Assembly: GCA_030390025.1 (NCBI GenBank)
Contig: CM059437.1
Location: forward strand, 54,498,001-54,562,000
From: Squalus acanthias
Lineage: Eukaryota
DNA: 64,000 bases
Reading direction: 5' to 3'
Shown here: one piece after another, positions 1-59,209 of the stretch
Numbering within the stretch: the stretch's first letter is position 1
Layout of the letters: each line of letters opens with the position of its first letter
Notes under the pieces: model-generated
Database searches by the model: none
What the model was told of the DNA's origin: nothing
The model's input: only the letters and a program-made list of their open reading frames with translations
Made by a program: the position numbers and the translations under genes

Positions 1-536
1 AAATGCCTTTAAGGGGAAGCTCGATAAGTACATGAGGGAAAAAGGGATCGAAGGATATGCAGACAGTGTTAGATGAAGTAGGGTGGGAGGAGACTCGTGT
101 GGAGCATGAACACCGGCACAGACCAGTTGGGCCGAATGGCCTGTTTCAATGCTGGATATTCTATGTAATTTCATGTAATAATCCAATAAAGATTGGCGCC
201 GTTGAGCGTTATTATTCTTCCATCGTAATATTCTTAATATGTTTGGACTACAGTTTAAAAAAAGAAAAACTATGACCTGCAGGTTTAATCCAAATAAGAG
301 TTTTCAGTTTTAATTTTTTTCTCGATGCACGGAGCTCTCGCTTTTTCTTCAAATCGTTATATAGTTTTCTCGATCAACGGACCCGATGTGATTAGTTAAA
401 GAACATTATTAATCTCCCTTAAGCTTGTAATGTGGTACCAAATTAAAAACGTTGAAAAAAGTAAAACTCTGAATTTCGACTTTTTACATCCAATTCAGAG
501 TGGATCTTCACAGGTTGTTTCTTCTTTTCTTTGTAG

Positions 537-859
537 ATCCGCGGGCTCCGTCAGTGACCGTCCTTCCGCCTTCATCGGATCAAATCGCAGCAAAGACCAC
601 GGCGACCCTGGTGTGTTTGGTGAACGGCTTTAACCCGGGCGCTGTGGAGATTGAGTGGACTGTCGATGGCAGTGTCAGAGCAAATGGTGTTGAGACCAGT
701 CGGGTCCAGCAGCAGACGGACAACACGTTCAGTGTGAGCAGTTATCTGACTCTGCCAGCCTCAGTGTGGAACTCACACGAGCTTTACTCCTGCGTGGTTA
801 AACACGAGACTCAGGCAAACCCGCTTCAAACAAGTATCGCGAGATCCAGCTGTATCTGA
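537..859 (+). CDS. Ig light-chain constant exon, cluster 1 (lambda-like/type II); V-J lies upstream of the window
   Basis: Acceptor ttctttgtag|ATCCGCGG; C1-set Ig motifs PSVTVLPPS, ATLVCLV, IEWTVDG, YLTL, LYSCVVKHE and terminal SSCI; 323-nt exon, same length as the other two C exons; AATAAA at 1070-1075. Confidence 0.95.
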
Positions 860-1676
860 TTCAAGAATCTTATGTATTCGTCTAATATACCATCAGTAAA
901 CGTTCTTTGAACAAAGTTCGAAATTAAAGGTTATTTTTTTTAGTTTAATTGCTGTATTTGAAGTTATAACAATGAATATGCAGTTAGTTTGTTTGCTTGA
1001 TTCCAATGGGTGAACCCAAGAGTGTGCTGAGTCTACAGTCATCACACCTTTACTGTCTCATTGCAGTGAAATAAAATTATTGTTCCACTGTCTCAGATGA
1101 TGTTATTCTTTTCTTGCTTTAATTCTCTCCGAATTTATGACCATTTTTAAAACGTTCAAATCTCGAGGTTTCACTCTTTGTGAACTTTTTCAAATTTACA
1201 TAAAGCCGCCAAACTCTCGATCGAAATAACGATTTTACAGAATGGATGGGTGTCGGGTTCGAAAAATAACAAGGTATAAAATGTTAAATTCGGTTTGTAT
1301 ATTGATTGAAATACATTGCGTCTGTGATTGCGTTTAAGGTTCTCCTTTTTTCTGTATGACCTCGGTGAGAAACTACATAAATACCAAATAACATTGTATC
1401 ATACCCGTTGGAAAAGATAAATCTTAATCAGCGTTGAAGTGGAACGAGAATAGAACCTGAATTGAAAAGAGAACGCATAGAATCATAGAATGATGCCGCA
1501 CACAAGGAGGCCATTCGGTCCATCGAGCTTGTACCGGCTCTTTAAAAGAGCTTGTCCAATCGTACCACTCCACTGCTCTTTCCCCATAGCCCTGCAATTT
1601 TCTCCTCTTCAAGTATTTCAGCACCATCTCTGAATTCATGCTACAAGTAGGTAAAGTATGATCAGAAACATCCACA

Positions 1677-3760
1677 TGTTAGAGTTTATTTTGAATCCAT
1701 TTTAATTGCATTGACCAGACACATAAGAACATGAACAGTACAAATGCCCCTTTTTGTGCAAAATGCTTCGTGAACCAAAGGTATCGCTGTGGAGTGTTAG
1801 AATGTGTACATAGAAAACGGCTAAATTAGGATAACTTGACATGATCAGAATGCATTATGGCTGAACGCCTTGAGAATTAGTAATGTTACGATAGGACAAA
1901 CTCGATTAGGGATAATGGAAAAATACATGACTGAACTCATCATAGCCATGTAAGAAAAGAACCATAAGAGATTTTGAGATAAAAAGAACTGGAACAAGGG
2001 ATACAAAGACAGCAGCTGAGATGGAGTTCCAAGGGCAGAACTTTTACAACTCAGTTCAGATATGCCTGTTTGCTAACCTGTATAAATATGAATGATCAGC
2101 AACAATGTTCAGTCTTAGCGCTGCAAACTGCCATGAACAGTATCGTCTGTATGTCCCACATAGACATTCTACTTCTGAGTTTATAAACGTATATTACTTA
2201 CTTGTAGTCTTAGTACGTTCTCAAATATCAATAAACATCAGTCAATGTATCACTTACTCATGCGTCTTAGAATCTGTTCATTACTTTTTATGGAACATGT
2301 TTGGCAACTTGCAGCAAGACTCTAAGCATTGGTTATTTGACCAGCGATCCGGGACTGATCAACCCGGAGCCAACCCCAACGTGCATTAGAGGGAATTCAG
2401 GAATAGCAATTGAATTTGGCGTTAATAATAAAATGTAGAAGTAATGGAGAATTTCGGAAAATATGTACACAAATAAAGCGGCAGCCGCGCTGGTGGCCCA
2501 CTGACATTAGCGGACTTGATGGCACGACCGCTGAGCTAGTTGGATCAGGTGCTAGAGATATAGCTCTTTAGTGCCCGATAGAATTATAAAAATAACACCA
2601 AAGCAGCGGTGGTGCAAGTTTTGATTGCCGTAACTAAGGCAAATGAAGTTTAGAATAAGAAACTAGGAACTAGATTAAAAGAATAAAGGGTGAGCAGCAA
2701 GGATTGCGTGCAACCTGTCAAGAACTCATAACACAACTAGAATAATGCTCAAAACATTGTAATAAATTAAAAGACATTGTGCAGGAGGAGGATAAGGAGT
2801 ACCAGGGGTTAAAGTGGGCCATTAAACATTAGACCTAGGCTGTGATGCAGTTTGGTAAAGATACCTCAGCTATTCACATCGAGTGTAACAAAAGTATTGG
2901 GAGACAAGAGAAATAAATTAAAAGCCCACAAGGTTGTTACCCAGATCTCCACCGTGCCAGGCTTGGTTGAAGTCTCTGACCAATGGGCGGTTATATTGGT
3001 AACATTGTGGGGGTACATGAACCACGTCCCCTGAGCGAGTAAACAAGGTGACACAACAGGAGCACCAATGCAAGCCTGAGAACAAGCATCTCTTACACCT
3101 AAATGAGGATTTAAATCATTGGAAAACTGGGGTCAGCAGTCAATATAAGAGATTGACAGTTGAGGTGAGAGTACAAGGATAAATAAAGCAGAAGAGGATA
3201 TCACTTTTCTACCGGTGACACGGGCTACATCAGGAGCTTTTCTGTTTCAGTGTACAGTTTCCTTTAAATTTCACTGTGAAACTGCAGTCTGTAGAACCAT
3301 GCCCGTGGTGGCTCCGTCCACTTTTCACAGTCGCTCTCTAAAGTGTTAAACCTTTGTAGACCTTACCTTAGTTAACATTAAGATTGGTACAAATATTTAA
3401 ATCCTGCAAGAGCTATTTTTTTCTCATTTTTTACATTGAATGGATAGGCAACGAAACAATCCACTTGGGATGAAGATAAACTATATTTTAAAACCGAGGT
3501 CATAACTACTGCTACCTGTAAGAGTAGTTATAGTGAGTAGAATAGCCAGCATCATATTAATTAGGTCACAGCAGTTTTAGAAGGGGTTAATGGAATTAAG
3601 TTAGTCTCCGAGCACAAAGGGACACAGAGATTAGCACCAACGTTTGGGAAGATGCACTGTCTGGAATTAGGTTGGGAGTTTGAAAGAATACTAGTCTTTC
3701 TCTGCAATAAATATCTATAAGAGTTAAGGAAATGAAGGCCATGAGTGAAGACTGTCGTTG
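1677..3760 (+). mobile_element. Possible highly degenerate LTR-element remnant (also present in the duplicate)
   Basis: Starts TGTTAG, TATAAATA near 2081, AATAAA near 2230, then a purine-rich decayed coding-like tract; no recognisable protein motif. Confidence 0.3.
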
Positions 3761-3899
3761 AGCAAAAAGCAGACAGCGATACGAGTATGCATGCGAACAT
3801 GTGAAGTGGAAATTACACTGCATATTGCAATGATGTATCAACAGAATGTAACAGGAACGGGCTAACATACAACATTATGCATAAACCACGTAGTTAGTC

Positions 3900-4085
3900 C
3901 TATAACCCTCCTATTTCTTATCTGCATGCTGCCCCTCCTCGACATCAGCAGAAGACACAGCATCAGGTTCCAAATGTATGCTGACGATACCCAGCTGCAG
4001 CTCACCACCACCTCTTTCAATCCCTCCACTGCCTCTGTGCTGTCAGACATCCATTCTTGGCTGAGCAGAAATATCCTCCAATTAA
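3900..4085 (+). mobile_element. L2-type LINE RT fragment
   Basis: atgtatgctgacgatacccagctg encodes MYADDTQL. Confidence 0.65.
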
Positions 4086-4089
4086 CAAG

Positions 4090-4515
4090 CGAAGTCTATT
4101 AAACCTGTCCTCATAATTTAACTCTTTTAGCCCAAGTATCATCCTGGTGTATCTTCGCTGCACCCCCTGCAAGGCCAATATATCCTTCCTGAGGAGCAGG
4201 TCTCAGAACTGAATACAGAAACTACAACTTGGGTCTAACCAGTGCTCAGTACAGCTGTAACATAACTTCTACCCATTTCTATTCCAGCCCACTTGAAATA
4301 AAGACCAAATTTCCATTAGCCATTTAAATTATCTTTTGTAGCTTTAAGTGATTTCTATACTTGGACCCCTAAATCTCTCTGCTCATCCACAGTTCCTAGC
4401 TTCTTGCCATTTAGAAAATACACTTTCTTGGTTCCAAAGTGGATCACCTCATATTTTCCTGCATTGAACTCCACCTGCCACCGTTTTGCCCACTCACTTA
4501 ATCTATCAATATCCC
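4090..4515 (-). mobile_element. CR1 LINE RT fragment
   Basis: ORF 4355-4570 DIDRLSEWAKRWQVEFN...VIHFG...QRDLGV resembles the intact CR1 at 19884-21983. Confidence 0.8.
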
Positions 4516-5734
4516 CCGCAGAGTACGCCATGATACGCCTTTGAAACTGACTACATTTTCTGGATTTCATGCGCTAAATCCCGAACTTGCGATCTGTCAA
4601 GTTCCGACTCCGCATCAGCTTCGCTGCACGTTTCATCCACCCGTAGAAATCAACGTGCTGGCGAAAAGTTGGGTTAATTGCCCAGCTACTGCGCATTCAT
4701 TACGGTGGGTTTTTTTTTACGGCTGGTGCAAATATGCGCGTGAGCCTGTTTGCAGCGTGTAAGGGGCTGGGCGCTGAGAAATTATTAGGTATTAATTATC
4801 TTGCTATTAAATTAACAATGCCTTCTCAGTTTACCTCGCCTCTTTTGTCAGAACCCACTAGAATAAGCATTATGCTGCAATGCTGATTCTGAATGACCTT
4901 ACCCTCGGCAAGTTCGCTTATCATTCCTTTCGTCTTTTATCGATTTTTTTAAATGGACACGTTTTCCATTATAGTAATGCTGCACGTTATTTGAAATATT
5001 CATCGGGATATAAAATTATGAATTCAACATGGTATAAATCTGTCGCTGTTCACAGAGCTTTATTTTAATAATCCTTTCATAGTTTCCAGTTTTGTTTCGC
5101 TTTTGTAATTAAATATTTAAATACCAATAACATGCTCTTTATACTAGGTCTTTACAAGTGAATGCTACACAGAAAACTGGAAACATCTAGAACCACAAAC
5201 AACAGCAATCTCCTCTGTTTCCTGATTGGGTAAGAGTCTGGAAGTGAAAGGAGCACCGCCCCACGTGATCCCAGGTATGCTTACCCACAACAGTGCGCTC
5301 CTGGGACCAGTGGGCCACTGAGCTGCACACAACTCCGCAGCGAAACAATGCAAGTTCGCGAAGGTGGGGTTCGCACCAGGTAAATGCAGATTTCCTACAG
5401 ATGTCAGTGGCGTAATCCTTAGCTACGATGCCGACTGCAAATTCAGGGCCATTATTTGATGTGCCACCTAGCTGAGATTCGTCAGCAAACTTACATATAC
5501 AGCTCTCTATTCCTTCATCCAAGTCGTTTATCCATATAATGAAAAGCTGCGGCCCCATTACAGATACCTGGCAGACAACACTCGGCTCATTCGGCCTATT
5601 TAAGTACATACCATTTATTCCTACTCTCTGTCTCTTACCTCATAACCAATTCCATGTCAAAGCCAATAGTTTGCTCCCAATTCCATTCGCTCTCATTTTT
5701 CTCAACAGTCTCTTAAATGACATTGTCAAATCAC

Positions 5735-6192
5735 GCCTGTACTCACCGACCAATTTGGCTGCTGGTCCACCAATGCCTGGATATTAAAAATCTCATCCTC
5801 ATGTTCAGATCCCTCTGTGATCTCGCTCGTCCCTGTCTCTGTAACATCCTCAAGCCATACAACCGTCTGCTAATGCTGCACTCCGCCAACTCTGGACTCT
5901 TGTGCATGTTCCACTTCCTTCACCCCACCATTGGAGGCCGTGACTTCAGACGCCTCGGCCCTAAGCTCTGAGTTACCTCCCCAAAGGTCTTTGCGACTCC
6001 ACCTCTCTCTCCTCCTTTAACACGCTGCTTACAAACTACCTCCTTGACTAAGTATTTGGCTATTTGGCCTAATGTCTCCTTCTTTGGCTCGGTGTCAATT
6101 GTTGTCTGTTTACGCTCCTGTAAAGCTCATTGGGTCCTTTTCCTACATTAAAGGTGCTACATAAATGTAAGTTCTTGTTGTTGTTGATGTTA
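5735..6192 (+). mobile_element. L2-type LINE 3' fragment
   Basis: Same 3' sequence as 6925-7400, 29130-29575 and 41350-41703; ends in a (ttg)n tail. Confidence 0.7.
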
Positions 6193-6924
6193 TTCAAAGA
6201 TACTGAGAACAAAAATAAAAGTTGCAGTGACCCCCTGAGGAACAATCACTCGCAAACTGTCTCCATTTGAAGCAAGATGCACTTACCCTCACTCTTTTTT
6301 TTCTGTCCTCAAATAACTTTCTATCCACGCTGCTACATTTCCTCTTATACCATACGCCTAAATTTTCTAACACCCCTTCTGGAAATCCATGCACACTACA
6401 ACCACTGAATTCTCTTTCTCTCTATAATTAATTCAATGGATCCATATTTTGTATGTGGGAATATTGCATTGCAAGCCTGTGACATGCCCATTATTTATTT
6501 CAAAAGAGCAGTCAAGTAGGTTTTAGTACCACAAGTGAGTCCTGGAGTCGATTTGTGGGGACAACTTGACAGTGACGTACCCAAAGCTTCTTGAAAGAGG
6601 GAGAACCAGTCTGATGAATTCCATCCTATTGCCAATGTATAGAGATAAATAGAGGAAGAATAAATCTTCTGTCTAAAAAAGTATACATAATTCATAATGT
6701 ACCGTATACATTTAGAGCTGGATCTGGGCCCACCGGGGCAAAACTAAATGCTACACGTTTCTTGCATGTTAAGCTTCCATGAAGTGGTATTTATATTAGT
6801 CTATCACACAATGTTAACATGTTAATTATGCCATGAAGGCACAGTCTGGAGGTGTGAACAATATTGCACCATGTATCATTCAAGTTGGCGATCAAAGCAA
6901 ACATTAAACCATTAATATGCATTT

Positions 6925-7400
6925 CTCGTGCCCGTATCCTAACTCGCATAATTCCCGTTCACCCATCACCACGGTGCTCGCTGACATACATTGGCTATTC
7001 ATCCAGCAATGCCTCAGTGTTAAAATTCTCACCTTTGTTTTTAAATTCCTCCATGGCCTCACCCCTCCATATCTCTCTAAACTCCTTCAGCACTACAACC
7101 GCCTCAGAACTGTGCACACCTCCAAATCTGGCCACTTGAGCAACATCGATTTTAATCGCTCCACCATTGGCTGCGTGCCTTCAGCTGCCCAGGCCCACAG
7201 GTCTGAATTTGCCTCCCTGAAACTCTCCGCCTCTCTACCTCTCTCCTTCTTTAACATTCTCCTTAAAACCTATCTCTTTGACAACGTTTTTGGCCACCTG
7301 TCGTAATATCTCCTTATGTGGCTTGGTGTCAAATTTTGCTTGATAACGCTCCTGTGAAGCACCTTGGGAAGTTATGCTACCTTAAAGGCACGATATAAAT
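6925..7400 (+). mobile_element. L2-type LINE 3' fragment
   Basis: ORF 6917-7306 SPITTVLADIHWL...KILTFVFKFLHGLTPPYLSKLL, typical of an L2 ORF2 C-terminus. Confidence 0.75.
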
Positions 7401-7404
7401 AAAA

Positions 7405-8258
7405 TTTGGGGGTTTAGCGCTGGCTGTTAAGGCAATTTTGAAAGAAAAATGCGTCAGCCGCCATTTTGGGCAGGTCGGTAACGCTGCCGATACATGCGCT
7501 CGCTGCAGATATTTAGATTTATCTGATCGTGACGTCAGTGTGTGCACATCGCTCACTTCTCTGCCGGTTTGCAGTTTTCACCTTCGGAGCGCCACTTACT
7601 GGTCGATGCAAATCACAACCAGATGACCCAGCGTTCAGCAGCAGGAAGGAGGCTCCAGCAGCGCTACTTAAAGGGATCATCATCACCAACATGCAGCTGA
7701 CATGGTTTTTCAGTTTGACTGACCCTGTGTAACTTTCTGCAACTGGTGTAGCTTTCTCAACTTGGTTCAAGTTCCTGAGGTGACAGGGAGTGTTGGTACA
7801 AGTGGAGAACGCCTTCACTCTCATTTACAGGCTTCTGCTCACACCACGTACTCACCGTCATGGGGCTCTACTTGCAGTCCCGTTCGTGCTCGAGTATCTT
7901 CAGGAGGGAGCGGAGGCAGCAACGAAGAGGGGAAGATGCACGCAGAGGGTATAGAAGAAGGGCCAGGAGGGCTCTCAACAGGAGGCCTTACCCACCCAGG
8001 GTCTTCCGAGAGCACTTATCTTATCTCAACTTAAGCGAGGAGCAGTGTAGTAGGAGGTTCAGCTTCACCAAGGAGGTGGTCACACAACTGTGCCACCTCC
8101 TGCAACCTGACCTGCAACCTTAGCACACGGCAAACACGGCTCTCCCAATGGCTCTCAAGGTCACCGTGTCCCTCAATCTTTTCGCCAGCAGATCCTTCCA
8201 GTCTGCAGCAGGAGACATAGCTAACATCTCCCATTTCAACGTACATCACTGCATCCGG
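7405..8258 (+). mobile_element. Truncated PIF/Harbinger transposon (5' part)
   Basis: RRPYPPRVFREHLSYLNLSEEQCSRRFSFTKEVVTQLCHLLQPDLQP; paralogous to 42915-43570, which continues into the catalytic core. Confidence 0.75.
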
Positions 8259-8261
8259 ATG

Positions 8262-8562
8262 CAGTTAGAGATGTGAAAGGTTTTAAGCAAGTACAGAGGC
8301 AGGGAAAGAGGGAGGGGAGGAAAGAACAAAAAGGATGGTCTGGGTAGAAGACAGAAGTAATAAAATGAAAAAGGGATGATGGTGCAAGGCAAAAGGGGAT
8401 GGTTATGGGACAATAAAAGAAACAAAAGATGGGTCTAGAGGAGTAGAAAATAACAAAAGCAAAATCATTAGCAGCAATTGCTGTCCGACTAAATGAGATC
8501 TGAAATAGTTAAATTCATTGTTGAGTACGGAAGGCTGTAAAGTGCCTAATCAGAAGATGAGG
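8262..8562 (-). mobile_element. Penelope-like element 3' fragment
   Basis: Reverse complement resembles the GIY-YIG end and 3' UTR at 47885-48240. Confidence 0.65.
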
Positions 8563-10294
8563 TCTAACCAAGGTTCGATGCAAGTTTAACAAAATTTCTC
8601 GGCTTTTCAATTCTATCCCTCTAGAATTGAAATCCAGTGCTTGATTTGCATTTTATGGCCTTATTAACCAGCATCATGACTTTGAGTGATTTGTGTATCT
8701 GTACCCCTAGATCCCTTTGCGCCTCTACCCCATTCAGATGCTTATTATCCAAGCATTATGTGGCCTCCTTATTCTTCCAACCAAAGTACACCACTGTTGA
8801 GATTAACTTATCTCTGGTCTTTCAAATAATCAGGATCGAGTGCAAACCAATATGGTGGTTATATTGAGTTTAATCGGAGTTTAGGATGGAAAATAACACA
8901 CTAGTTATGCAGCAAAAAGGTACGATCATGACAAATAGCTGGTACCGGACCCGATCGGACAGTCAGCTGGCACACACGAACAACTCGTCTTATTCGTTCT
9001 CCTTCTTGTCTCACGTGTCTCTCTCTCTCTCTTTCAGAACTACCCAGGAGTGTTAGACTAGGGTCAGCATGGGTACACTCTCAGAAGAGTGTCAGAACAC
9101 CAATTTCACACTTGGGAGCCCTTCGCTCCACGGTCTGCGCTAAGGGTTCTTTAGGTCTACCTTGTATTTTATTTTTAGGGCTGTGCCTGAGGTAGAATAT
9201 GGACAGGACAATTTAACCTTATAGAGGGTCCCCTTAAAACAAGGTGCCCAATGGCATGTCGGGTTCTTTGTCTAAACTTACAGATGAAGACCCTCCCTCA
9301 AGGTGGTTGGCGGGGTGGGGGGGGGGGGTCTTCATAACAATTACACATGTTTTCTTGTTTATACAGCTTTGAAGGGAAATCCTTCTGGATCCCACTTATC
9401 TCGTCCGGCCCTGTCCTCCAATGGTTTAGTCCCTTATCTCATCCTGTCTTGTCCTCCCTGGTCTGGAGCCAGTAGCCCAGACACACCAAGCTTTGCCTTT
9501 AAACTCCTTCAGTCAGAGACCCCATTGTTGGAACTGCTTGTTATCAATTATTTATGTTCATGCTGCTGGCCGTGCAAACTAACTATTTCATTTCATGATC
9601 AGTTTATTGTACCATGAAATGAAACATTAAATTCCCATAGATATCCTCTATTCTATGCCCTTATACTAATTAACATTTAAATATCTCCGTAAGCAGTTCT
9701 GTTAAACGAACTCCAATTCCTATCTTAGCGTTATAATATGGTTATTAGTAATAATGGAAGAAACGTAGGTTGGATCTTCATTGGCCAAATTAAAGACACA
9801 TTAAACAAAGTCAAAATCCTAACTTACAAACAACAGACAGCTAGCCTGGCAGGGAAGGTCATGCTGTGGGCCCCGATGTGGGATGTTATGCATCAACTAA
9901 TCTAACTAACTAAAAACACTTTGTCTCGATTCTAATACAAGTTTTCCAAGAAACGAAACTTACACAGTTCCAGTAAGACACAACTTATACATTAACCCGT
10001 TATTTGTCTCGAGCAGAAACATACAACCATTTAAACACAGTATGATTCATGTCACAGTTACATTCGCATAACCATATATGTTTTTAGGCACCCCTAATTT
10101 CTAACAGTCCCCCCCTCCCACCCATCCCCCTCCCCCGCACTTGAGAGGGAGAAAACTCTATTTCGACCTCTCATTTTCGAACTTTACCAACTCTAGATTA
10201 TTGGATCAACCCCTCACTCAAATTCAATTCACTGATCTGGTGTTCCAATTCTGCCCTGCCTGGGGTATTCTGTATTTCCTCTATCTTTCCTGAT

Positions 10295-11155: not shown

Positions 11156-11338
11156 TTACGCAGCCTGGGGTCTCCTTTACTTCATTTCGGATTTCCGTCC
11201 GTCATTAATTCGTTAGTACAGTTAGTCATGATTATAGATACACATTTGGCTTATTCATCAAAGTCTTACTACACGGGTTATTTATATCAAATACAGTATA
11301 ATTACAAGTTGGTGAACTACCAGAGCGTGTGAAATAAT

Positions 11339-12101
11339 GGCCCGAAAATTAGACCTAATACGGGAGATTACGCACTGTGTACTCTCGCGTATTAGGTCTC
11401 GAAGTGCCGGTTTCCTGCATGCACTGCGCATGCGCGGGAAACCGGCACTTTGGGTATTGCGAAGGGGGCGGTTCCTAAGTGAACAGCGTGCGCACTACAG
11501 GTTGCGCGCACGCAGCACACTAAGTTTTTTTTTCAGGTTTGAACGCGCAGGTAAGTGTTGAAGATCTTACACATGAAGAAAGCAGGCGTAAGACCCCCTT
11601 TTAACAAGGTAAGTAGTTAATTAAGTATTATTTTAAAAATTTTTCAACAGGTTTATCTTTTTTAGAGACTTTAAAGAAAGGTAAGTTTATTTTTATAACT
11701 TTTAAAAAGAATTTAAATTTTTTCAAAAATTTAAATTTGTTTAAAGTGGTTAATTTATTTAACTATAGTTATTTTATTAATGTGATGGCTTTTCTTTAAA
11801 TTTAATTGAGGTTTAGCTGTTCTTTTGGGGGCTTGTTGTATTCATAGTTTTGACAGCTCTTCCTGTCAAAACTATGAATGAAAGATGGTGTGCTGCCATT
11901 GGCTCTAACTGGCCCACGTGATCCCAGAGGTCGCATCGCACTAACTGCGCCTCTGGGACACGCACACACTGCGCGCCGGCACCAGGGAGAGGCCCAGGAA
12001 CTGAAGTTCGTGTGGGCCAAAACCATAAAGGCAGGCGCGGAGTGTGATATCGCGGGGGATCCTTACCCCCGCGGCAACCATCGAAGTCCAATTTCTGGGC
12101 C
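11339..12101. mobile_element. Non-autonomous PIF/Harbinger-type MITE
   Basis: TIRs GGCCCGAAAATT / AATTTCTGGGCC; 3-bp TSD AAT on both sides; closely similar to 17152-17896. Confidence 0.85.
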
Positions 12102-14970: not shown

Positions 14971-15584
14971 ACTGTTGGCGATAACTTATTTCTGGTCTTT
15001 CGAATAATCAGGATCGCATGCAAACCAATGTGGTGGGTATATTGTGTTTAATCGGAGTTTAGGATGGAATCTAACACACTAGTTATACAGCAAAACATAT
15101 GACTGTCACAATTAGCAGGTACCGGACCCGATCGGACAGACGGCTGGTGTGTGTGAACAAGTCTTCTTATTCATTTCCCTTCTTGTCTCACGTGTCCCTC
15201 TCTCTCTTTCTGAACTACCCAAGAGTTTTAGACTAGGGTCAGCATGGGTCCACTCTCGGAAGAGTGTTAGATCACCGATTTTACTCTTGGGAGCCCTTCG
15301 CTCCTTGGCTGAGCTAAGAGTTCTTTAGGTCTTCCTCTTATTTTATTTTTAGGGGTGGGCCTGAGGTAGAATATGGAAAGGACCATTTAACCTATAGAGG
15401 TTCCCCTTCAAACAAGGTGCCCAATGGCAAGTCGAGTTCTTTTTCTAAACGTACAGATGAAGAACCTCCCTCAGGGTGGTGGGTGGGGGGGCGGGTCTTC
15501 ACAACCATTATACATGCTTTCCTGTTTATACAAAAGTGAGAAGTCGCACAACACCAGGTTATAGTCCAATAGTTTTATTTGAAA

Positions 15585-15622
15585 TCACAAGCTTTCGGAG
15601 CTGCTGCTCCTTCGTCAGGTGA
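15585..15622 (-). ncRNA. Minimal type I hammerhead ribozyme motif (mirror arm)
   Basis: Minus strand tcac-CTGACGA-A-GGAGC(agca)GCTCC-GAAA-GC-TT-gtga. Confidence 0.78.
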
Positions 15623-15708
15623 AGTGAAGAAATACAAATCGTCACAGCATATATAGACAGAGAACATTGTTCTCTGTCTATATATGCTGTGCCGATTTGT
15701 ATTTCTTC

Positions 15709-15752
15709 AATTCACCTGACGAAGGAGCAGCAGCTCCGAAAGCTAGTGAATT
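15709..15752 (+). ncRNA. Minimal type I hammerhead ribozyme motif
   Basis: aattcac-CTGACGA-A-GGAGC(agca)GCTCC-GAAA-GC-TA-gtgaatt; 7-bp stem I, 5-bp stem II, palindromic AGCT stem III. Confidence 0.8.
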
Positions 15753-16203
15753 CAAATAAAACTGTTGAACTATAACCTTGTGTTGTGCGACTTCTCACTT
15801 TTGTCCACCCCAGTCCAACATCGGCATCTCCGCATAATTCCTGTTTATGCAGTTTTGAAGGCCAATCTATCTGGATGCCGCTTATCTCGTCTGACCCTGT
15901 ATCTCATCCTGTCTTGTCCTCCCTGGTCTGGAGTCAGTATCCCAGACACACCAAGCTTGGCCTTCAGACTCCTTCAGTCAGAGAACCCATTGTTGGAACT
16001 GCTTGCTATCAATTATTTATGTTCATGCAGCTGGCCATGCAAACTAACTATTTCATTTCATTAGTCAGACTATTGTATCATGAAATGAACCATAAATTCC
16101 CATAAATATCCTCTATTCTATGCCCTAAATACTAATTAACTTTTACATAACTTCACAAGCCGGTCTGTTAAGTGAACTCTAATTCCTACCTTAGCACTTT
16201 AAT

Positions 16204-16963
16204 GGGCCAGAAATTCGTGTCTCCACGGGTGAGTATGCGCTGGGTACTCACCCGTAGACCCAATGAAAGTGCCGGCTTCGCGCATGCACTGCGCATGCGC
16301 TGGAAACCGGAACTTCTGTTCCCCTGAAGGAAGGGGTTCAGAGGTCGAACACGTGCGCTGGAGAGGCAGTGCGCATGCAGTGAACGTCCTTTTGTTTTCA
16401 GGTTTCTCCATGAGGGTAAGTACGGAGAAGCTGCGCGGGAAAAAAGGAGGTGCAAGGCCTGCTTTTAACAAGGTAAGTGGTGAATTATGTACAATTTAAA
16501 AAATTTTGCAAAAGATTTATCTTTTTTACATAGTTTAAAGAAAGGTAAGTTTATTTTTAGCACCGTTAAAAAGTGTAATTAATTTTTTCAAAAATTTAAA
16601 TTTTTGTTTAAAGTAGTTAATTTATGTAATTTGTAGTTATTTGAAAAATGTGATTTTTTTTTTATTATTTGAAGTTTTAGTGAGGTTTTGTGGCCGATCT
16701 CTATTCATAGATTTTGCAGGTCTTCCTGTCAAAATCTATGAATGAAGATTCCCTGCTCCGATTGACTCTCCATGGCCCACGTGATCCCAGGGGACGCTTC
16801 AAACTAACTTCGCCCCTGGGATACGCAAGCACTGTGCACCGGCAGCTGCAGCAACCCCAGGAGCCGAATTCACGTGGGCCTGAAGCAGAACAGCAGGTGC
16901 GGTATGTAAGTACGCGCGCGATTCTTGCACCCGCAGGAAGCCAGATAGCCGAATTTCTGGCCC
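16204..16963. mobile_element. Non-autonomous PIF/Harbinger-type MITE
   Basis: Perfect 14-bp TIR GGGCCAGAAATTCG; flanks AAT/AAA; absent from the sister LTR near 9735. Confidence 0.88.
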
Positions 16964-17151
16964 AAAATGGTTATTAGTAATAATGGAAGAAACATGGGTT
17001 GGACCATCATTGACCAAATTATAGACACATTAAAAAAAGTCAAAATTCTAACTTACGAACAACAGACAGCTAGCCTGGCAAGCAAGGTCATGCTGTTGGT
17101 TCCTATGTGGGATGTTAAGCATCATCTAATTAAACGAACTAAAAACACTTT

Positions 17152-17896
17152 GGTCCGAAAATTAGACCTAATACGCGAGAGTACGCACTGTGTACTCTCG
17201 CATTTTAGGTCTCCAATTGCCGGTTTACAGCATGCACTGCGCATGCGCGGGAAACCAGCACTTCGTGAATTCAAAAGGGGGCGGTTCCTAGGTGAACCGC
17301 GTGCGCGCTACAGGCTGCGCGCACGCAGTGCACTTCGTGCTTTGAACGCGCAGGTAAGCATGGAAGATTTTACACATAAAGAAAGGAGGCGTAAGACCCT
17401 CTTTTAACAAGGTAAGTAGTTAATTAAGTATTATTTTAAATTTTTTTCAACAGGTTTATCTTTTTTAGAGACTTTAAAGAAAGGTAAGTTTATTTTTATA
17501 ACTTTTAAAATGATTTTAAATTTTTTCAAAAATTAAATTTTTTATTTAAAGTGGTTAATTTATTTAACTATACTGATTTTATTAATGTGATGGCTTTTTA
17601 AAAAAATTTAATTGAGGTTTAGCTGTTCTTTTGGAGGGCTATATTATTCATAGCTTTGACAGGACTTCCTGTCAAAACTATGAATGAAACATGGTGTGCT
17701 GCCATTGGCTCTAACTGAATCACGTGATCCCAGAGCTCGCACGAACTAATTGCGTCTCTGGGTCACGCAAGCACTGCACAGCTGCAGCCTTGAAACTAAA
17801 GTTCGTGTGGGCCCGGAGGAAAAAGGTAGGCGTGGAGTGAGATATCGCGGGGAAGCCTTACCCCCGCGTCAACACTCATTCTTTAATTTCCGGGCC
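17152..17896. mobile_element. Non-autonomous PIF/Harbinger-type MITE
   Basis: TIRs GGTCCGAAAATTA / TAATTTCCGGGCC; TSD TTT; empty site (cactttgtctcg) near 9920 in the sister LTR. Confidence 0.88.
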
Positions 17897-18087
17897 TTTG
17901 TCTCGATTCTAATACAAGTATTCCAGGAAACAAAACTTACGCAGTTCCAGTAAGACACCACATATACATTAACCCCTTACTTGTCTCGAGCAGAAACATA
18001 CAATCATTTAAACACTGTACTATTCACATCACAGTTTCATTCACATAACCATCTACGTTTTAAGGTACCCCTAATTTCTAACACCAC

Positions 18088-31301: not shown

Positions 31302-31451
31302 GTAAGTAGAGGGCTGTAAAAGTCTTCAATATTCCTGCTCTTTTTATTACGCTGATCGGGTGCTGTACTTGAGCTTCACCGGTCTGAATTGCAATTATTT
31401 TCCACGATTTTACTGAAGGTCACTTTGTCAATAACTTTTTTATTTCTCCAG

Positions 31452-31801
31452 GTACCAACGCGGGTATTGTGCTGACTCAACCACCGTCCATCTCAACTTC
31501 ACTGGGAAAAACCGTCAAAATCACTTGCACCCTGTCCGGAGGCAGCATGGGCAGCTACTACACGAGCTGGTACTGGCAGAAACCCGGCAGTGCCCCTGCC
31601 TTTGTTTGGAGGACTATGATTCGAGCAGAGGTTCGGGGATTCCTGATCGATTCACTGGATCCAGGGACACGTCGAGCAACGTCATGCATTTAACCATCAG
31701 CAATTTACAATCCGGGGATGCCGCCGAATATTACTGTGGTGCCAGGGATAGCAGTGCTGTTGTATTCACTTTCGGGAAAGGAACTGAACTGAATCTGGGC
31801 A
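31452..31801 (+). pseudogene. Germline-joined VJ exon, cluster 2, frameshifted at about 31610
   Basis: ccag|GT ACC AAC GCG; [10 protein letters not shown]...ITCTLSGG...[14 protein letters not shown], then in another frame [17 protein letters not shown]...EYYCGARDSSAVVFTFGKGTELNLG, A|GTAAGT; 350 nt, so out of frame; no RSS between V and J. Confidence 0.9.
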
Positions 31802-33959
31802 GTAAGTAAATTTCTCGCTGTGTACGTCGGGGATTCTTAAAGTGTGAGTTTTCAATTGTTGGTTTAATCCGATTGTAGTGAAAATGCTTTCGAACATACA
31901 TTTATAATTCTCCGTTTCCCTCTTGGTGTTTAGAGGGAGATGTGCTTCTGTTATGTTTGTTAAATGCTCATGAAACTGTCGCACAGCAATTGCAATGTTA
32001 TGGATGAAGTTCCAAATAATTATTTTTAAGTAGGTGGAATTCAGCCTGCACCAGTGTAATTATAATTTATTGGTGATTTGAAACATATTCGTAAAGTATT
32101 GGTCAATCTGCATGATACGGCATTAAAACATATCTGGATACTTTTGACTGCCATACATTGTCCTCGCGCTGTGCTTCATGACTCGCGTAGAGCTAAAAAA
32201 AAAATATAACGTGAAATATTTTATAATTCCCCGACACGGTGCCATTAAAGATTCCCAATCAGAGATTGGGAGCGTGTGTCATTTCCATGCGATACTTTCA
32301 GTATTGTATTTCATGTTAGTCATAATTTCACTAGTAAGAAACAGATAATTATAAATCATAGTGATTGGGTTAGAAATTTTAATATAAGTTACAGATATTA
32401 AGAAGTTGATGTTCTTTTTTGAAGACAGGGATATTGAGGTTATCAGAGATAAAATGTGATTAGAAGTTTGTTGCCTTTGGAAAGACATTATGATTGGAGA
32501 CGGTCATATGCTGTCTTGTATAGTTCTTAGTTTTTAAGGGAACTGGGTAATATTGACTGAAGAGAGATTAGCTTAATTAGGTCAAATGATGCGTCCTAGA
32601 TAACTATGATCTCCTGGAGCTTGCTTGATCCCCTTCAAGAGTTTCAGAGAAATTTCCCAGAGCATTCACGGAATTGGCCACATGTTTTTCGCTGTTTTGG
32701 CTCCCCAGAAGATGATAGTACGGGAGGTTGCATGAGTGGATATCCTCAGCAACCTAGGGTCTGAAACTCCTTTCCCATCTTTCTATTCGTATGTTTGATC
32801 CCGCGCAGATATTATAATCACTGACAGACTGATTACCTTCGAATCCGATTAATTTTGTATGAATAGAACCGCGGGATCAGCATTTGAATTTTTATTTAAT
32901 TCTGTCAGTAAAAAATTATATACCTACAGGTACTCCGAAAGACTCAAACGGCATTTTTATTGGGATATTTAGCTACAGGCTGTAGAAAAGGCGCTGCGTT
33001 GTATTATAAATTGTTCCATTCAACTTACATCTGATGCAAGTTAAATTTCAAAAGCAATTTTAACAGAGTAGGAGATTACACTTTCAAACTATTTACACGT
33101 CTGGCGGTTGGTCTGTCTCCGTTGGTAACTTTCTCACGTCTGGATCAGAACGTTTTAGATTTAAGCCCCTTTTCCAGGCGTGACATCGGAACACTAGGGA
33201 GCCCCTTGCGCATGTTCCGCCATTCCATTGGATCATGGCTGATATGTACCTCAACTCCATCTATCTGCCTTTGCTCCCTATCCCTTGATAACCTTAGCCT
33301 ACAAGAATTTATCGATCTCAGTCCTGAAGATCTAATTTCACCCAATAGCCTCCACCTTTTTGGGGCAGGGAGTTTCAGATTTCCACCACCCTTTGTGTGA
33401 AAGAGTGCTTCCTGGTTTCACTCCTTAATGCCCTAGCTCTAATTTTAAGTCCTTGGCTTTTTGTTCTGGATTCCCCCACCAGAGGAAATGGAGATATGGA
33501 GGGAGTGCGTCATTGAAGGAAATGCCTTCTTTTGGATAACGCCATAAAGAGGAGTTCCACATTCCTGTTCAAGGGTTCGTTCACGATCCCGTTGCATTAT
33601 TCGAGGAACAGCAGAAAATCACTGCCCATACCCCCACCCCCGCCTCAATCATTGCCTTAAAAGAAATGGATTTCTGGCTTCTTGCTTTGATTAAGTTTAC
33701 CGTCACTGCGCTTCAGAGTAATATAAGTGAAAACTGATGTGGTGCTATATAATGCTACTCGTTATTCTTTTTATATTAACATAAACAAGTAGAAGCAGCT
33801 GAGCTTCCTGCAGCAGATGTTTCCTCGTCTGACGAGGCAGCTAAAAGCCGAAATACTGGGTAGCGATTACATCAAACAGCGTCTCAAGCGTGACTCTGCC
33901 AGGTGCAATTGTAGCCCCAGCATTCAAATTATAACCGTCTGAAAAGACTGAACAGACTG

Positions 33960-34370
33960 GGGCCCTGAATCATTGAACATGCTGGGCGGTGACTTAATAG
34001 AGATCTTTAAATTTATGAAAGGTTTTGATAGTGGAGACGTAGAAAACACGTTTCCACTTGAGGGGTAGACCAAAACCGGGGGTCATCAATATTAGATTGT
34101 CACTAATAAATCCAAAAAGAATCCAGGAGAAACTTATTTGCCAGAGAGTGGTTAGAATGTGGAACTTGCTACCACATGGAGCAGTTGAGGCGAAATGCTG
34201 AAATGCCTTTAAGGGGAAGCTCGATAAGTACATGAGGGAAAAAGGGATCGAAGGATATGCAGACAGTGTTAGATGAAGTAGGGTGGGGGGAGGCTCGTGT
34301 GGAGCATGAACACCGGCACAGACCAGTTGGGCCGAATGGCCTGTTTCTATGCTGGATATTCTATGTCATT
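33960..34370 (+). mobile_element. CR1 3' fragment in the J-C intron
   Basis: Resembles the CR1 ORF2 C-terminus and 3' UTR; its paralogue ends at 1-170. Confidence 0.7.
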
Positions 34371-34755
34371 TCATGTAATAATCCAAGAAAGGTTGGCGCC
34401 GTTGATCGTTATTAAACTTGCATCGTAATATTCTTAATAAATTTGGACTACAGTTTAAGGAAAGGAAAACTATGATCTTCAGGTTTAATCCAAAAAAGAA
34501 TGAATATTCTTTCTGTTTCATGTTCTTTCTCGATGCACGGAGCTCCCAGTTTTTCTTCAATTCGTTATATAGTTTTCTCGATCAACGGACCCTATGTGAT
34601 TAGTTCAAGAACATTATTAATCTCCCATTGTAATATTCTTAAACTTGTAAAGTGGTACCAAATTCAAAACGTTGAAAAAGTAAAACGTTGAATTTCGACT
34701 TTTTACATCCAATTCAGAGTGGATCTTCACAGCTTGTTTCTACTTTTCTTTGTAG

Positions 34756-35078
34756 ATCCGCGGGCTCCGTCGGTGACCGTCCTTCCGCCTTCATCGGATC
34801 AAATCGCAGCAAAGACCACGGCGACCCTGGTGTGTTTGGTGAACGGTTTTAAACCGGGCGCTGTGGAGATTGAGTGGACTGTAGATGGCAGTGTCAGAGG
34901 GAATGGTGTTGAGACCAGTCGGATCCAGCAGCAGACGGACAACACGTTCAGTGTGAGCAGTTATCTGACTCTGCCAGCCTCAGAGTGGAACTCACACGAG
35001 CTTTACACCTGTGTGGTTAAACACGAGACTCAGGCAAACCCGCTTCAAACAAGTATCGCCAGATCGAGTTGTATCTGA
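34756..35078 (+). CDS. IgL constant exon, cluster 2
   Basis: ttgtag|ATCCGCGG; open 323-nt exon ending SSCI-TGA; AATAAA at 35191-35196 and 35290-35295. Confidence 0.95.
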
Positions 35079-36480
35079 TTCAAGAATATTATGTATTCGT
35101 CTAATATACCATCAGTAAACGTTCTTTGAACAAAGTTCGAAATTAAAGTTTAATTTTTTTTAGTTTAATTGCTGTATTTCAAGTTATAACAATAAATATA
35201 CAGTAAGTTTGTTTGTTTGATTCCACTAGGTGCACCCAAGTGTGTGCTGACTCTGCAGTTATCACACCTTTACTGTCTCATTGCAGTGTAATAAAATTAT
35301 TGTTCCACTGTCTCAGATGATGTTATTCTTTTCTTGCTTTAGTTATCTCCAAATTAATGACCATTTTTAAAACGTTCAAATCTTGAGCTTCCACTCTTGG
35401 TAAACTTTTTCAAATTTACTTTAAGCCGCCAAACTCTCGATCGAAATAACGATTTTACAGAACGGATGGGTGACGGGGTCGAAATATAACAACCTATAAA
35501 ATGCCAAATTCGATTTGTATGTTGATTGAACTACACTGCTTCTGTGATTGCGTTTAAGATTCTCCCTTTTTCTGAATGACCACTGTGAGAAACTACATAA
35601 ATACCAAATAACGTTGTAACATACCCCTTAGAAATGATAAATCTTAATCAGAGTGCCAGTAGAATGAGAATAGAACCTGAATTGAAAAGAGAACGCATAG
35701 AATCATAGAATTCTGCCGCACGGAAGGAGGCCATTCGGCCCATCGGGCATGTGCCGGCTCTTTGAAAGAGCTTGTCCAATAGTCCCACTCCACTGCTCTT
35801 TCCCCATAGCCCTGCAATTTTCTTCTCTTCAAGTATTTCAGCGCCATCTCTGAATTCATGCTACAAGTAGGTAAAGCATGATCAGAAACATCCACATGTT
35901 AGAATTCATTTTGAATCCATTTTAATTGCATTGACCAGACGCAAAAGAACAGGAACAGTACAAATACCCCTTTTTGTGCAAAATGCTTAGTGAACCAAAG
36001 GTATCGCTGTGGAGTGTTAGAAGGTGTACATAGTTAACGGCTAAATTAGGATAACTTCACATGGTCAGAATGCATTATGGCTGAATGCCTTGAGAATCAG
36101 TAATGTTACTATAGAACAAACTAGATTAAGGATAATGGAAAAATACATGACTGAGCTCATCATAGCCATGTAAGAAAACAGGCGTAAGAGATCTTGAGCT
36201 AAAAAGAACTGGAACAAGGGATACAAAGACAGCAGCTGAGATGGAGTTCCAAGGGCAGAACTATTACAACTCAGTTCAGAGATGCCTGTTTGCTAACCTG
36301 TATAAATATCAATGATCAGCAATAATGCTCAGTCTTAGCGCTGCAAACTGCCATGAACAGTATCGTCTGTATGTCCCAAATAGACATTATACTTCTGAGT
36401 TAATAGACGTATATTACTTACTTGCAGTCTTAGTACGTTCTCAAATATCAATAAACAGCAGTCAATGTATCAACTTACGC

Positions 36481-37630
36481 AATAACAACAGAAAACGCTG
36501 GAAAAACTCAGCAGGCCAGGCAGCATCCGTGGAGAGAGAAAGAGAGTTAACGTTTCAGGTCGATGACCTTTCATCAGAACTGGGAAGAGCCGGAAATCAA
36601 ATAGATTTAAGGCCAGGGTAAAGACTCCCACAGCTACCTGGACTACACTTCCTCCCACCCCGCCTCCTGTAAGGACTCTATTCCATTCTCCCAGTTTCTC
36701 CGTCTCCGCCGCATCTGCTCTGATGATGCCACCTTCCATACCAGTGCTTCAGACATGTCTTCCTTTTTCCTCAACCGAGGATTCCCCTCTACCGTGGTCG
36801 ACACGGCCCTCGACCGTGTCCGTTCTATCTCCCGCACATCTGCCCTCACTCCTGCCCCTCCCTCCCGGAACCACGATAGGGTTCCCCTTGTCCTCACCTT
36901 TCACCCCACCAGCCTCCACATTCAACGGATCATCCTCCGCCATTTCCGCCACATCCAGCGTGATCCCACCACCAAACACATCTTCCCCTCACCTCCCCTT
37001 TCAGCATTCCGTAGGGACCGCTCCCTCCGCGACACCCTAGTCCACTCCTCTACCACCCCCAGCACCCCTTCCCCTTCGCCCGGCACCTTCCCGTGCACGC
37101 GCAGGAGATGCAACACATGCCCTTATACCTCCCCTCTTCCCACTGTCCAGGGCCCCAAACACCCCTTCCAGGTGAAACAGCGATTTACTTGTACTTCCTG
37201 CAATTTAGTATACTGTATTCGCTGCTCACGATGTGGACTCCTCTACATTGGGGAGACCAAACGCAGATTGGGTGACCGCTTTGCGGAACACCTCCGTTCA
37301 GTCCGTAAGGGGGACCCCGAGCTCCCGGTGGCCTGTCACTTTAATTCACCGCTTCACTCCCACTCTGACCTCACCGTCCTCGGCCTATTACACTGTTCCA
37401 CGGAAGCTCAGCGTAAGCTCGAGGAACAGCACCTCATCTTTCGTTTAGGCACGCTACAGCCCTCTGGACTCAATATCGAGTTCAACAATTTTAGATCATA
37501 ACCTCAGCTCCAATCACATTTATATTTTATTTTATCCACCCTTTTATTTGTCCCCCCCCACCTTTTTTTTCCTCCTTGAAGCTGGCAGTTGTCCTTCATT
37601 CTGCCAGTGGATTTCACACTTCATTCAGCC
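36481..37630 (+). mobile_element. Penelope-like retroelement: inverted pLTR piece, then RT C-terminus and GIY-YIG endonuclease
   Basis: ORF 36755-37501 with CTRRRCNTC linker and NLVYCIRCSRCGLLYIGETKRRLGDRFAEH; absent from the paralogous site near 2255. Confidence 0.93.
36545..36581 (-). ncRNA. Minimal type I hammerhead ribozyme of the Penelope pLTR
   Basis: Minus strand agtt-CTGATGA-A-AGGTC(atc)GACCT-GAAA-CG-TT-aact; palindromic ACGT stem III. Confidence 0.8.
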
Positions 37631-39096
37631 TTATGCGTCTTAGAATCTGTTAATTACTTTTTATACAACAGTTTTGGCAACTTGTAGCAAGACCCTAAGC
37701 ATTGGTTATTTGACCAGCGATCCGGGACTGATCAACCCTTAGCCAACTCCAACGTGTATTAGAGGGAATTCAGGAATAGCAATTGAATTTGGCGTTAACA
37801 ATAAAATGTAGAAGTAATGGAGAATTTCGGAAAATATGTACACAAATAAAGCGGCAGCCGCGCTGGTGGCCCACTGACACTAGCGGACTTGATGGAGAAC
37901 ACCGACCCCTGAGCGAGCTGCTTCAGGTGCTAGAGAATTAGCTCTTTAGAATTATAAAAATAACACCAAAGCAGCGGTGGTGCAAGTTTTCATTGCCGTT
38001 ACTAAGGCAGTTGAAATTTAGAGTAAGAAACTAAGAACTAGTTAAAAAAAAAGGGTGAGCAGCAAGGACTGCGTGTAACCTGTCAAGAATTAATAACACA
38101 ACCAGAATAATGCTCAAAATATTGTAATAAATTAAAAGACATTGTGCAGGAGGAGGATAAGGAGTACCAGGGGTTAAAGTGAGCCATTCAACATTAGACC
38201 TAGGCTGTGATGCAGTTAGGTAAAGATACCTCGGCTATTCACATCGAGTGTAACAAAACAATTGGGAGACAGGAGAAATAAATTAAAAGCCCACAAGGCT
38301 ATTACCCAGACCTCCACCGTGGCAGGCTTGGTTGAAGTCTCTGGCCAATTGGCGATTATATTGATAACATTGTGGGGGAACATGAACCACGTCCCCTGAG
38401 CGAGTAAACAAGGTGACACAACAGGAGCACCAATGCGAGCCTGAGGAGAAGCATCTCTTACACCTAAATGAGGATTTAAATCATTAGAAAACTGGGATAA
38501 GTAGTCAGTATAAGAGATTGAAAGTTGATGTGAGAGAACAAGGGTAAATAAAGGATGTGACACGGGCCACATCAGTAGCTTTTCTTGTTTCAGTGTAGTT
38601 ATCTTTTAAATTTCTCTGTGAAACTGCAGTCTGTAGAATTGTGCCCGGGGTGGCTCCATCCACTTTTCTCAGTCGCTCTCTAAAGTGTTAACCCTCTGTA
38701 GACCTTACCTTAGTTACCATTAAGATTGGTACAAATATTTAAATCCTGCAAGAGCTATTTTTTCTCAATTGATACATTGAATGGATAGGCAACGATACAA
38801 TCCACTTGGGATGAACATAAACTATATTTTAAAACAGAGGCCATAACTACTGCTACCTGTAAGAGTAGTTAAAGTGAGTAGAATAGCCAGCATCATATTA
38901 AGTTAGGTCACAGCAGTTTTAGAAGGGGTTAATGGAATTAAATTAGTCTCTGATAACAAAGGGACACAGAGATTAGCACCAAAGTGTGGGAAGAAGCACT
39001 GTCTGGAATGAGGTTGGGAGTATGAAAGAATAATAGTCTTTCTCTGTAATAAATATCTGTAAGAGATAAGGAACTGAAGGCAATGAGTGAAGAATG

Positions 39097-40655: not shown

Positions 40656-40809
40656 ACACAAACATACTCCTACTGTCCTCCTCCCTCCTTCCCGCAGGTC
40701 CTCTCTGCCTGGGTTTCATAGGATGCAGTGTGATCCTCCCGACCTCGCTGTTGGCCCATGCTGCACCTTCCCTGGGCCCAAACCACGCTGCTGGTCTACA
40801 TTTTGCCAC

Positions 40810-41220
40810 TCCTGGTCCTCGACCTCGCGGCTGGGCTCGTCCTCGCTCCTGGGCCCCGCCGTCGCCCTGGGGTCTCGTCCTCGCTCCTGGGTCCCGACCT
40901 TGCTCCTGGGCTTCGTCCTCGCTCCTGGGTCCCGTCCTCGCTCCTGGGTCACGACCTCACTGCACCTCCCGTACCTGCTCCTGGGCCTCGGCCTCGCTCC
41001 TGGGCCTCGAACTTGCTCCTGGGCCTCGTCCTCGCTTCTGGGCCTCGATCTTGCTCCTGGGCCTCGACCTTGCTCCTGGGCCTCGTCCTCGCTCCTGGGG
41101 CTCGTCCTCGCTCCTAGTCCTCGACCTCGCTCCTGGGCCTCGTCCTAGCTCCTGGGCCTCGTCCTCGTTCCTGGGTCCCGGCCTCGCTGCTTCTCCCGTC
41201 CCTGCTTCTGGGCCTCGACC
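40810..41220. repeat. GC-rich minisatellite, 19-bp unit CTCGCTCCTGGGCCTCGTC, about 20 imperfect copies
   Basis: Direct reading of tandem units; produces repetitive ORFs in several frames. Confidence 0.9.
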
Positions 41221-52605: not shown

Positions 52606-53120
52606 CGCCTGTCACTTTAATTCTCCGCTCCACTCCCACTCTGACCTCTCCGTCCTCGGCCTCTTACACTGTTCCAAAGAAGCTCAACGTAAGCTCGAGG
52701 AACAGCACCTCATCTTTCGATTAGGCACTTTACAGCCTTCTGGACTCAACATCAAGTTCAACAATTTGAGACCATAACCTCTGCCCTATTTTTTCACATG
52801 GCAGCTGTTGATGCTTCTGCCATTCCCATTTACAACTCTTCTAGGCTCATCTTTTATTTATTTACATTTCCCATTACCATCTCCTTTTGCCTGGAACCAT
52901 CATCCCGTTTGTTTATAATCTCTCCTGCTTTCATCCTATCACAGACCACCCCTTTTGTTCTTTCCTCCCCTCCCCCTTTCATTGCACTTGCTTCAAATTT
53001 GTTACATCTCTAATTTTTTCCAGTTCTGACGAAAGTTCATCGACCTGAAACTTTAACTCTGTATCTCTCTCCACAGATGTTGCCTGAGCTGCTGAGTATT
53101 TCCAACATTTTCTGTTTTTA
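52606..53120 (+). mobile_element. Penelope-like element 3' fragment
   Basis: ACHFNSPLHSHSDLSVLGL...GLNIKFNN; decayed hammerhead at 53022-53058. Confidence 0.88.
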
Positions 53121-58034: not shown

Positions 58035-58169
58035 CTGTTGAATAACAAATAATTGATCAGTCGCACTCTGTGAAATTCTGAATAATCAGATCCGTTCAAC
58101 ACAACCACAACGAAACAAATCAGGGCAATGTAAAAAGCAGTGATATTAATGCTTAAGTCCTGCACTTAC

Positions 58170-59167: not shown

Positions 59168-59209
59168 TCACAAGCTTTCGGAGCTATCGATCGCCCCTTC
59201 CTCAGGTGA
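59168..59209 (-). ncRNA. Minimal type I hammerhead ribozyme motif (mirror arm)
   Basis: Exact reverse complement of 59221-59262. Confidence 0.78.

Follow-up and report, generated by a model that had tools for sequence, protein, structure and literature searches.

A palindrome of 275 bases with a hammerhead ribozyme motif on each strand lies inside an old long terminal repeat (LTR). The locus raises the question of whether such a structure is copied whole as a family of its own or is the by-product of one insertion that was laid down back-to-back. We addressed this question in the window, the whole 64,000-nucleotide stretch of DNA analysed here, and in public contigs that carry related sequence.

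A palindrome inserted within one LTR of an old element

The palindrome consists of two gap-free inverted-repeat arms of 137 bp that meet at a single unpaired T (15667). Its predicted RNA fold has an energy of -224 kcal/mol (z = -34), a value equalled by none of 100 shuffles. The arms differ at seven paired positions (15555/15779, 15566/15768, 15570/15764, 15584/15750, 15589/15745, 15624/15710 and 15642/15692); five of these differences are transversions, two of which lengthen helix I of the right-arm hammerhead. On the right side only, the repeat is extended by 33 bp that have no partner in the left arm, and this tail comprises 31 bases common to the family followed by two others. No reading frame across the palindrome stays open for more than about 50 codons. 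The whole structure is enclosed by a 14-bp target duplication that has one mismatch and is 71% A+T. The last three bases of its left copy are also the first three bases of the left arm, a microhomology, and the DNA added by the insertion is accordingly 15533-15837. The features of the insertion and its host are as follows.

15530 to 15666, minus strand: inverted arm, a 5'-truncated copy of the element end piece, without the tail
15668 to 15804, plus strand: direct arm, a 5'-truncated copy of the element end piece (pLTR-like)
15805 to 15837, plus strand: one-sided tail of 33 bp, from family comparison
15519 to 15532, no strand: left target-site duplication, 14 bp
15838 to 15851, no strand: right target-site duplication, from sequence comparison
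9352 to 9365, no strand: empty site in the sister LTR (8795-10106), from sequence comparison
14973 to 18083, minus strand: host LTR, about 1.3 kb plus the palindrome and two other insertions of about 750 bp

The two host repeats have TGTT...AACA ends and are flanked on their outer sides by an identical 4-bp sequence; on the minus strand, a purine tract lies next to 10106. The shared ends and flanking bases, together with this tract, indicate that the repeats are the LTR pair of a single old element. Target duplications of 4 bp are typical of Gypsy elements. The repeats are 83-85% alike around the insertion site, and the sister repeat carries the target sequence only once. The scanned frames between the two LTRs had no integrase or gag matches. 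The two other insertions in the right LTR are internally inverted and related to 11338-12101. An earlier, sequence-only reading of this DNA had described 137-bp arms around one central base with seven mismatches and no indels, a 14-bp target duplication with one mismatch, a sister LTR in which the site is empty, and a lack of coding capacity; our alignments and frame analysis agreed with this description, and the identity of the LTR pair holds.

Minimal hammerhead motifs on both strands

Each arm contains CUGACGA, a 5-bp helix II and GAAA, and the two motifs lie on opposite strands, as the sequence-only reading had proposed.

15582 to 15625, minus strand: minimal type I hammerhead motif of the left arm; descriptor match, cleavage predicted
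15709 to 15752, plus strand: minimal type I hammerhead motif of the right arm; descriptor and weak Rfam match, cleavage predicted

In the right arm, helix I pairs 15709-15715 with 15746-15752 (7 bp, plus strand), the core CUGACGA (15716-15722) is followed by an extra A at 15723, helix II opens with a G-C pair, and the triplet CUA places the predicted cut after 15745. The left-arm motif has a helix I of only 4 bp and the triplet CUU, with a predicted cut after 15589. The minimal hammerheads (min-HHR) of Penelope-like elements (PLEs) are described as having an extra base after position 9, G10.1-C11.1 and a palindromic helix III (Cervera and De la Pena 2014, PMC4209133). The motifs here carry CUGANGA, the extra base, a G10.1-C11.1 helix II, GAAA, a palindromic helix III, UH and a closing helix I. 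A palindromic stem III and a closing stem I had both been claimed: a 4-nt palindrome and helix I are indeed present, but stem III amounts to a lone A-U pair within that palindrome and the left helix I to its 4 bp.

We composed a strict hammerhead descriptor after the motif had been seen. It matched five sites in the window (two in the palindrome, two in a second copy of its family and one in another family), such that all four arms of the two family copies passed, and it matched nothing in 100 simulated windows with similar dinucleotide composition. An Rfam scan of the window returned nothing at gathering score. In the covariance search of the right arm alone, Hammerhead_1 (RF00163) was the top match but at 16.5 bits (E = 0.085) fell below its gathering cut-off of 34 bits. 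The whole palindrome matched only microRNA-hairpin and other non-ribozyme models, all below cut-off; a microRNA identity was rejected, as these sub-threshold scores reflect hairpin shape only. Among the matches listed from public contigs, position 7 of the family's hammerhead varied (C, G or U) and position 17 was U, A or C, with no G. As a speculative side observation, a 68-nt intron could be drawn at 15746-15813: its GT would sit where the hammerhead is predicted to cut, and its AG (15812-15813) would close a pyrimidine tract.

A second copy and an abundant family

The window holds one further copy of the family.

59144 to 59365, plus strand: second family copy, with an 11-bp duplication (59144-59154 / 59355-59365)

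In this copy the inverted arm (59154-59210) spans 57 bp and is perfect; a spacer of 9 nt separates it from a tailed direct arm that starts at 59220. Each strand has a hammerhead motif, and the enclosing duplication is 64% A+T. The centre of the copy corresponds to 15711, compared with 15667 in the palindrome, and its inverted arm ends about 41 nt short of the end of the palindrome's left arm. The family's 3' end runs into an ATG here (59349-59351). A frame with a reverse transcriptase or GIY-YIG match was found beside neither copy among the 60 of 68 window frames scanned; of the eight outside the domain scan, three are antisense to a LINE frame and five lie in a tandem repeat.

We then aligned public contigs of four runs to 15330-16050 at 85% likeness. 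Two runs (X3 and X5) are DNA from organism A, one (X12) is from organism A and RNA by guess only, and one (X6) is from organism B. Summed contig depth, which is a sign of abundance and not a copy number, was about 10^6 over the family core in X3 and X5 and 10^5-10^6 in X12 and X6, and 10^1-10^2 over the nearest flanks. The matches listed here are subsets: 15 of the 89 rows for junctions, 12 of the 72 for spacers and 24 of the 582 for loose ends. Among them, loose ends with mixed flanks occurred before 15527-15534 in 48 (X3), 35 (X5) and 5 (X6) contigs, and behind 15835 in 116, 97, 21 and 24 contigs across the four runs. Position 15530 is a recurrent family end, and since the ends at 15527-15534 mirror 15800-15807, the family has two preferred ends, which in element coordinates are separated by about 31 nt. 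Twelve X3 contigs run beyond 15666 with other letters, which indicates that the centre at 15667 is a cut within a longer element.

The pairs of left break and right start speak to how often a given centre recurs. All 20 distinct pairs among the matches listed differ from one another and from the palindrome; contig junctions identical to the reference were never listed, so that sharing of the centre at 15667 lies outside this count. Contig pieces with 31 letters on both sides of the centre or of either junction were absent from the list; such gaps carry no weight as evidence, and short-word assembly collapses palindromes. The nearest bridging piece (X3, 15401-15554, depth 13.7) has 25 letters on the arm side. 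Exact-pattern scans for the family in metagenome contigs, viral contigs and prokaryote genomes gave no copy, as expected for an animal repeat, and searches of the literature on shark Penelope elements, hammerheads and palindromes (mainly open papers, with Repbase outside this scope) did not turn it up.

Fold-back centres cluster beside promoter-like motifs

Of the 20 junction pairs among the matches listed, six are near-symmetric at 15709-15717, and the centre of the second copy (59211-59219) falls at the same edge. The junction that joins 15624 to 15712 reached a depth of 3273 in X3 (5 contigs), 51 in X5 and 64 in X6. The spacers at this edge comprise none, 1, 2 or 9 letters among the matches listed. 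Self-pairing of the cDNA through its helix I or II was considered as a source of the asymmetric junctions and rejected, as it did not fit the listed coordinates. The edge coincides with promoter-like motifs in both arms.

15649 to 15655, minus strand: TATA-like box of the left arm; consensus match, with an initiator-like A 30 nt downstream, at 15625
15679 to 15685, plus strand: TATA-like box of the right arm; consensus match, with an initiator-like A 30 nt downstream, at 15709

Hammerhead helix I opens with this initiator-like A (at 15709, and on the minus strand at 15625). Of the 64 TATA-like sites that the window contains, seven are paired with an initiator in this way, among them the palindrome's own two, so the match is weak when taken alone. 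Contig depth fell about 6- to 9-fold from bin 15605-15629 to bin 15630-15654 in all four runs. This drop fits a model in which most copies start at the initiator-like site, although subfamilies that differ upstream could also explain it. We infer that most fold-backs form once reverse transcription reaches the 5' end of the RNA; the palindrome, which reaches 41 nt further up than the start-site cluster, would then stem from a longer template. Rotifer PLEs have TATA and initiator motifs in the pLTR and palindromes at inverted junctions (PMC3846280), and a Drosophila element has an internal promoter described as TATA-less (PMC2377424), which indicates that a TATA box is not general among PLEs.

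Origin of the palindrome

These findings make it very probable that one insertion event gave rise to the palindrome. The inserted DNA would be the hammerhead-bearing end of a highly abundant family, most likely Penelope-like; it was probably laid down back-to-back in one round of reverse transcription and is likely a dead end. The layout has several features known from PLEs. In both window copies an inverted 5'-truncated copy lies beside a direct copy and the target duplication varies in length (14 and 11 bp) at A+T-rich sites, and the palindrome has a one-sided tail of 33 bp with two preferred 3' ends in the family. PLE insertions are reported to combine, often, an inverted 5'-truncated copy with a one-sided tail of 30-40 bp (PMC8557442, PMC8969392), and rotifer PLEs an inverted pLTR, a 31-bp tail, duplications of 8-10 bp and palindromes at the inverted junction (PMC3846280). 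Counted against a PLE origin, neither family copy has a reverse transcriptase or GIY-YIG frame beside it among the 60 scanned frames, and the window's one GIY-YIG-like frame is part of a second hammerhead family, for which blastn against the palindrome's family gave no match. Counted against a dead end, the abundant junction from 15624 to 15712 would also be expected from a propagating palindrome.

The sequence-only reading had offered two accounts. The varied centres and arm lengths, together with the PLE-type anatomy, support its dead-end inverted Penelope (snap-back) insertion. By contrast, its non-autonomous family of twin hammerheads found no support at the centre 15667, from which the second copy and the listed junctions differ in position as well as in arm length. 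It had also named a unique centre in every copy as the mark of dead-end insertions; the second copy and the listed junctions come near to this, but one junction at a different centre is abundant.

In the proposed mechanism, the element's endonuclease would cut an A+T-rich site in the older LTR with a 14-nt stagger, and reverse transcription would start from the RNA's tail end and proceed to 15668. The new strand would then fold back with one extra base and be copied outward to the tail-less end, and the outward copy would join the other end of the target through the 3-base match. The seven arm differences would arise after insertion. The PLE enzyme is reported to cut and extend both strands and to prefer A+T-rich DNA, and tail length to equal the distance between two reverse-transcription starts (PMC11167929). 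We lean slightly towards the fold-back step over priming from both nicks, with each cDNA halting at the same template end. Fold-back is favoured by the exact symmetry and by the arbitrary arm end of the second copy, and a second priming event by the fact that the left arm stops at the recurrent end 15530. The transversions and the lengthening of the right helix I sit oddly with plain decay, and two templates are possible. The route to inverted PLE copies is itself described as unresolved (PMC8557442, PMC3846280), and the fold-back step is unsettled in print because Arkhipova 2013 argues that self-priming would require an antisense template (PMC3846280).

A palindromic non-autonomous subfamily that is copied whole and passes on its twin hammerheads would account for the junction from 15624 to 15712, whose depth in X3 far exceeds that of the others and which is present in three of the four runs, and for the near-symmetric pairs at 15709-15717 (6 of 20 among the matches listed), where the second copy is also centred. 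Its centre would more plausibly lie there than at 15667, beyond which X3 contigs show the family to extend. However, the differing spacers at that edge (none, 1, 2 and 9 letters) are as expected from repeated new formation; inverted hammerheads would not release unit-length RNA, unlike the tandem ones of retrozymes as described in bioRxiv 10.64898/2026.07.22.740005; and whole copying would need a predicted 137-bp duplex as template. We regard this explanation as quite unlikely. It is less likely still, by a clear step, that a lone direct copy was inserted and only afterwards gained its inverted arm as DNA, through template switching during replication or through repair. Mirror symmetry and the 3-base microhomology at the left junction are compatible with any fold-back process, but both arms lie within one target duplication with no flank gained or lost, the left arm stops at a recurrent family end, and the second copy repeats this layout within a duplication of its own. 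A MITE-like fold-back DNA transposon or a hairpin RNA gene would explain the long inverted repeat and the microRNA-precursor models that score on the palindrome; here the model matches lie far below cut-offs and reflect hairpin shape, the repeat is not terminal on the right, where the 33-bp tail follows, and neither the duplications (14 and 11 bp) nor the arms are constant in length. This explanation is largely refuted and the least probable of those considered.

What twin hammerheads could do

The single-insertion reading carries with it, at the same high probability, the view that the twin hammerheads are a by-product of fold-back. RNA from either strand contains one sense hammerhead and one antisense copy, and a single sense hammerhead per RNA allows no pairing in cis and no excision of a unit-length RNA. 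In the predicted read-through RNA of either strand, the hammerhead core is unpaired with a probability of <=0.001, in line with the earlier proposal that such a transcript masks its own ribozyme. The same proposal suggested that the transcript might feed siRNA or ADAR pathways. RNAs from the two predicted start sites would have helix II folded with probabilities of 0.999 and 0.92, and in the modelled folds the start-site RNAs of the two arms might, in principle, pair in trans. For min-HHR, monomers are reported not to cleave and dimers to cleave at a low level (PMC4209133). We think it unlikely that start-site fold-back palindromes are active units, either as a fixed-centre subfamily that retrotransposes whole or through a two-way promoter that yields trans-cleaving dimer RNAs; the latter branch is limited to copies that keep both TATA-initiator pairs, as the palindrome does.

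Relation to known elements

An inverted-copy layout with opposite-strand hammerheads is already in print. Minimal hammerheads on opposite strands, about 100-700 bp apart, have been on record since 2014 (PMC4209133), with such pairs noted in Schistosoma. The min-HHR of that report resemble those of the palindrome in core boxes, the extra base 9/10.1, G10.1-C11.1, the palindromic 15.2-16.2 and a short helix I, but helix II has 5 bp in the palindrome and 7-8 bp in the Schistosoma motifs. The accessible text of PMC4209133 does not name cartilaginous fish among the hosts.

Pen2a_Av and its relatives from Adineta vaga, which are endonuclease-containing PLEs (PMC3846280; general scheme in PMC8557442), are close in layout: like the palindrome they have head-to-head inverted and direct copies, a one-sided tail of 31-33 bp, a variable duplication, a junction palindrome and an end piece with TATA-like and initiator-like motifs. 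Unlike Pen2a_Av, the palindrome lacks both a reading frame and a second pLTR in tandem, and its arms halt at the same base. The palindrome's family is likened to PLEs by its end-piece anatomy. PAc (Poseidon, Anolis carolinensis; Frangieh et al. 2024, PMC11167929) shares two preferred 3' ends that define the tail, an A+T-rich target and a hammerhead upstream of the tail. The PAc frame begins at helix II, whereas the palindrome has no open frame through the hammerhead. The PAc hammerhead cleaves only with protein, and insertion in vitro is reported not to require the hammerhead (PMC11167929). Non-LTR retrozymes are likewise short and non-coding, with a type I hammerhead, and are thought to derive from PLE end pieces, but they are tandem direct repeats with two hammerheads per RNA and require two tandem motifs (bioRxiv 10.64898/2026.07.22.740005); both window insertions of the present family are inverted.

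The palindrome alone, as an ordinary PLE fold-back, carries little weight. The family offers more: its many short, target-duplicated fold-backs have centres, spacers and arm ends that can be counted and that bear on self-priming versus double priming, and the clustering of centres at the predicted start site is the part worth a genome-wide count. A palindromic subfamily that propagates whole would, if true, be a new form of non-autonomous retroelement.

A second hammerhead family and other features of the window

In the second hammerhead family, represented at 36481-37629, a GIY-YIG-like frame (36611-37498) adjoins an inverted end piece and scored 21.8 bits, just under the cut-off of 22.6. The family's hammerhead motif lies at 36577 on the minus strand, within the inverted end piece, and its position beside such a frame supports the presence of hammerhead-bearing PLEs in this genome. 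Related pieces lie at 47600-48341, 52605-53123 and 8263-8563, with worn motifs at 48244 and 53026. Window bases 1-8200 recur at about 34200-43500, and the duplicated segment near 2257-2260 is without the second-family insertion.

Immunoglobulin C1-set and V-set exons occur in repeated clusters (473-856, 34692-35075, 54105-54482, 31435-31806 and 57688-58056). One of these V exons (57688-58056) is of the germline-joined type, with a J motif already in place, which we take to be a mark of a light-chain cluster of cartilaginous fish. A PDB search with one constant-domain exon pointed to no species-specific chain. The window also contains LINE-type frames, two adjacent frames with DDE_Tnp_4 (Harbinger-type) matches at 43565-44318, and a tandem array with a 19-bp period at 40833-41239.
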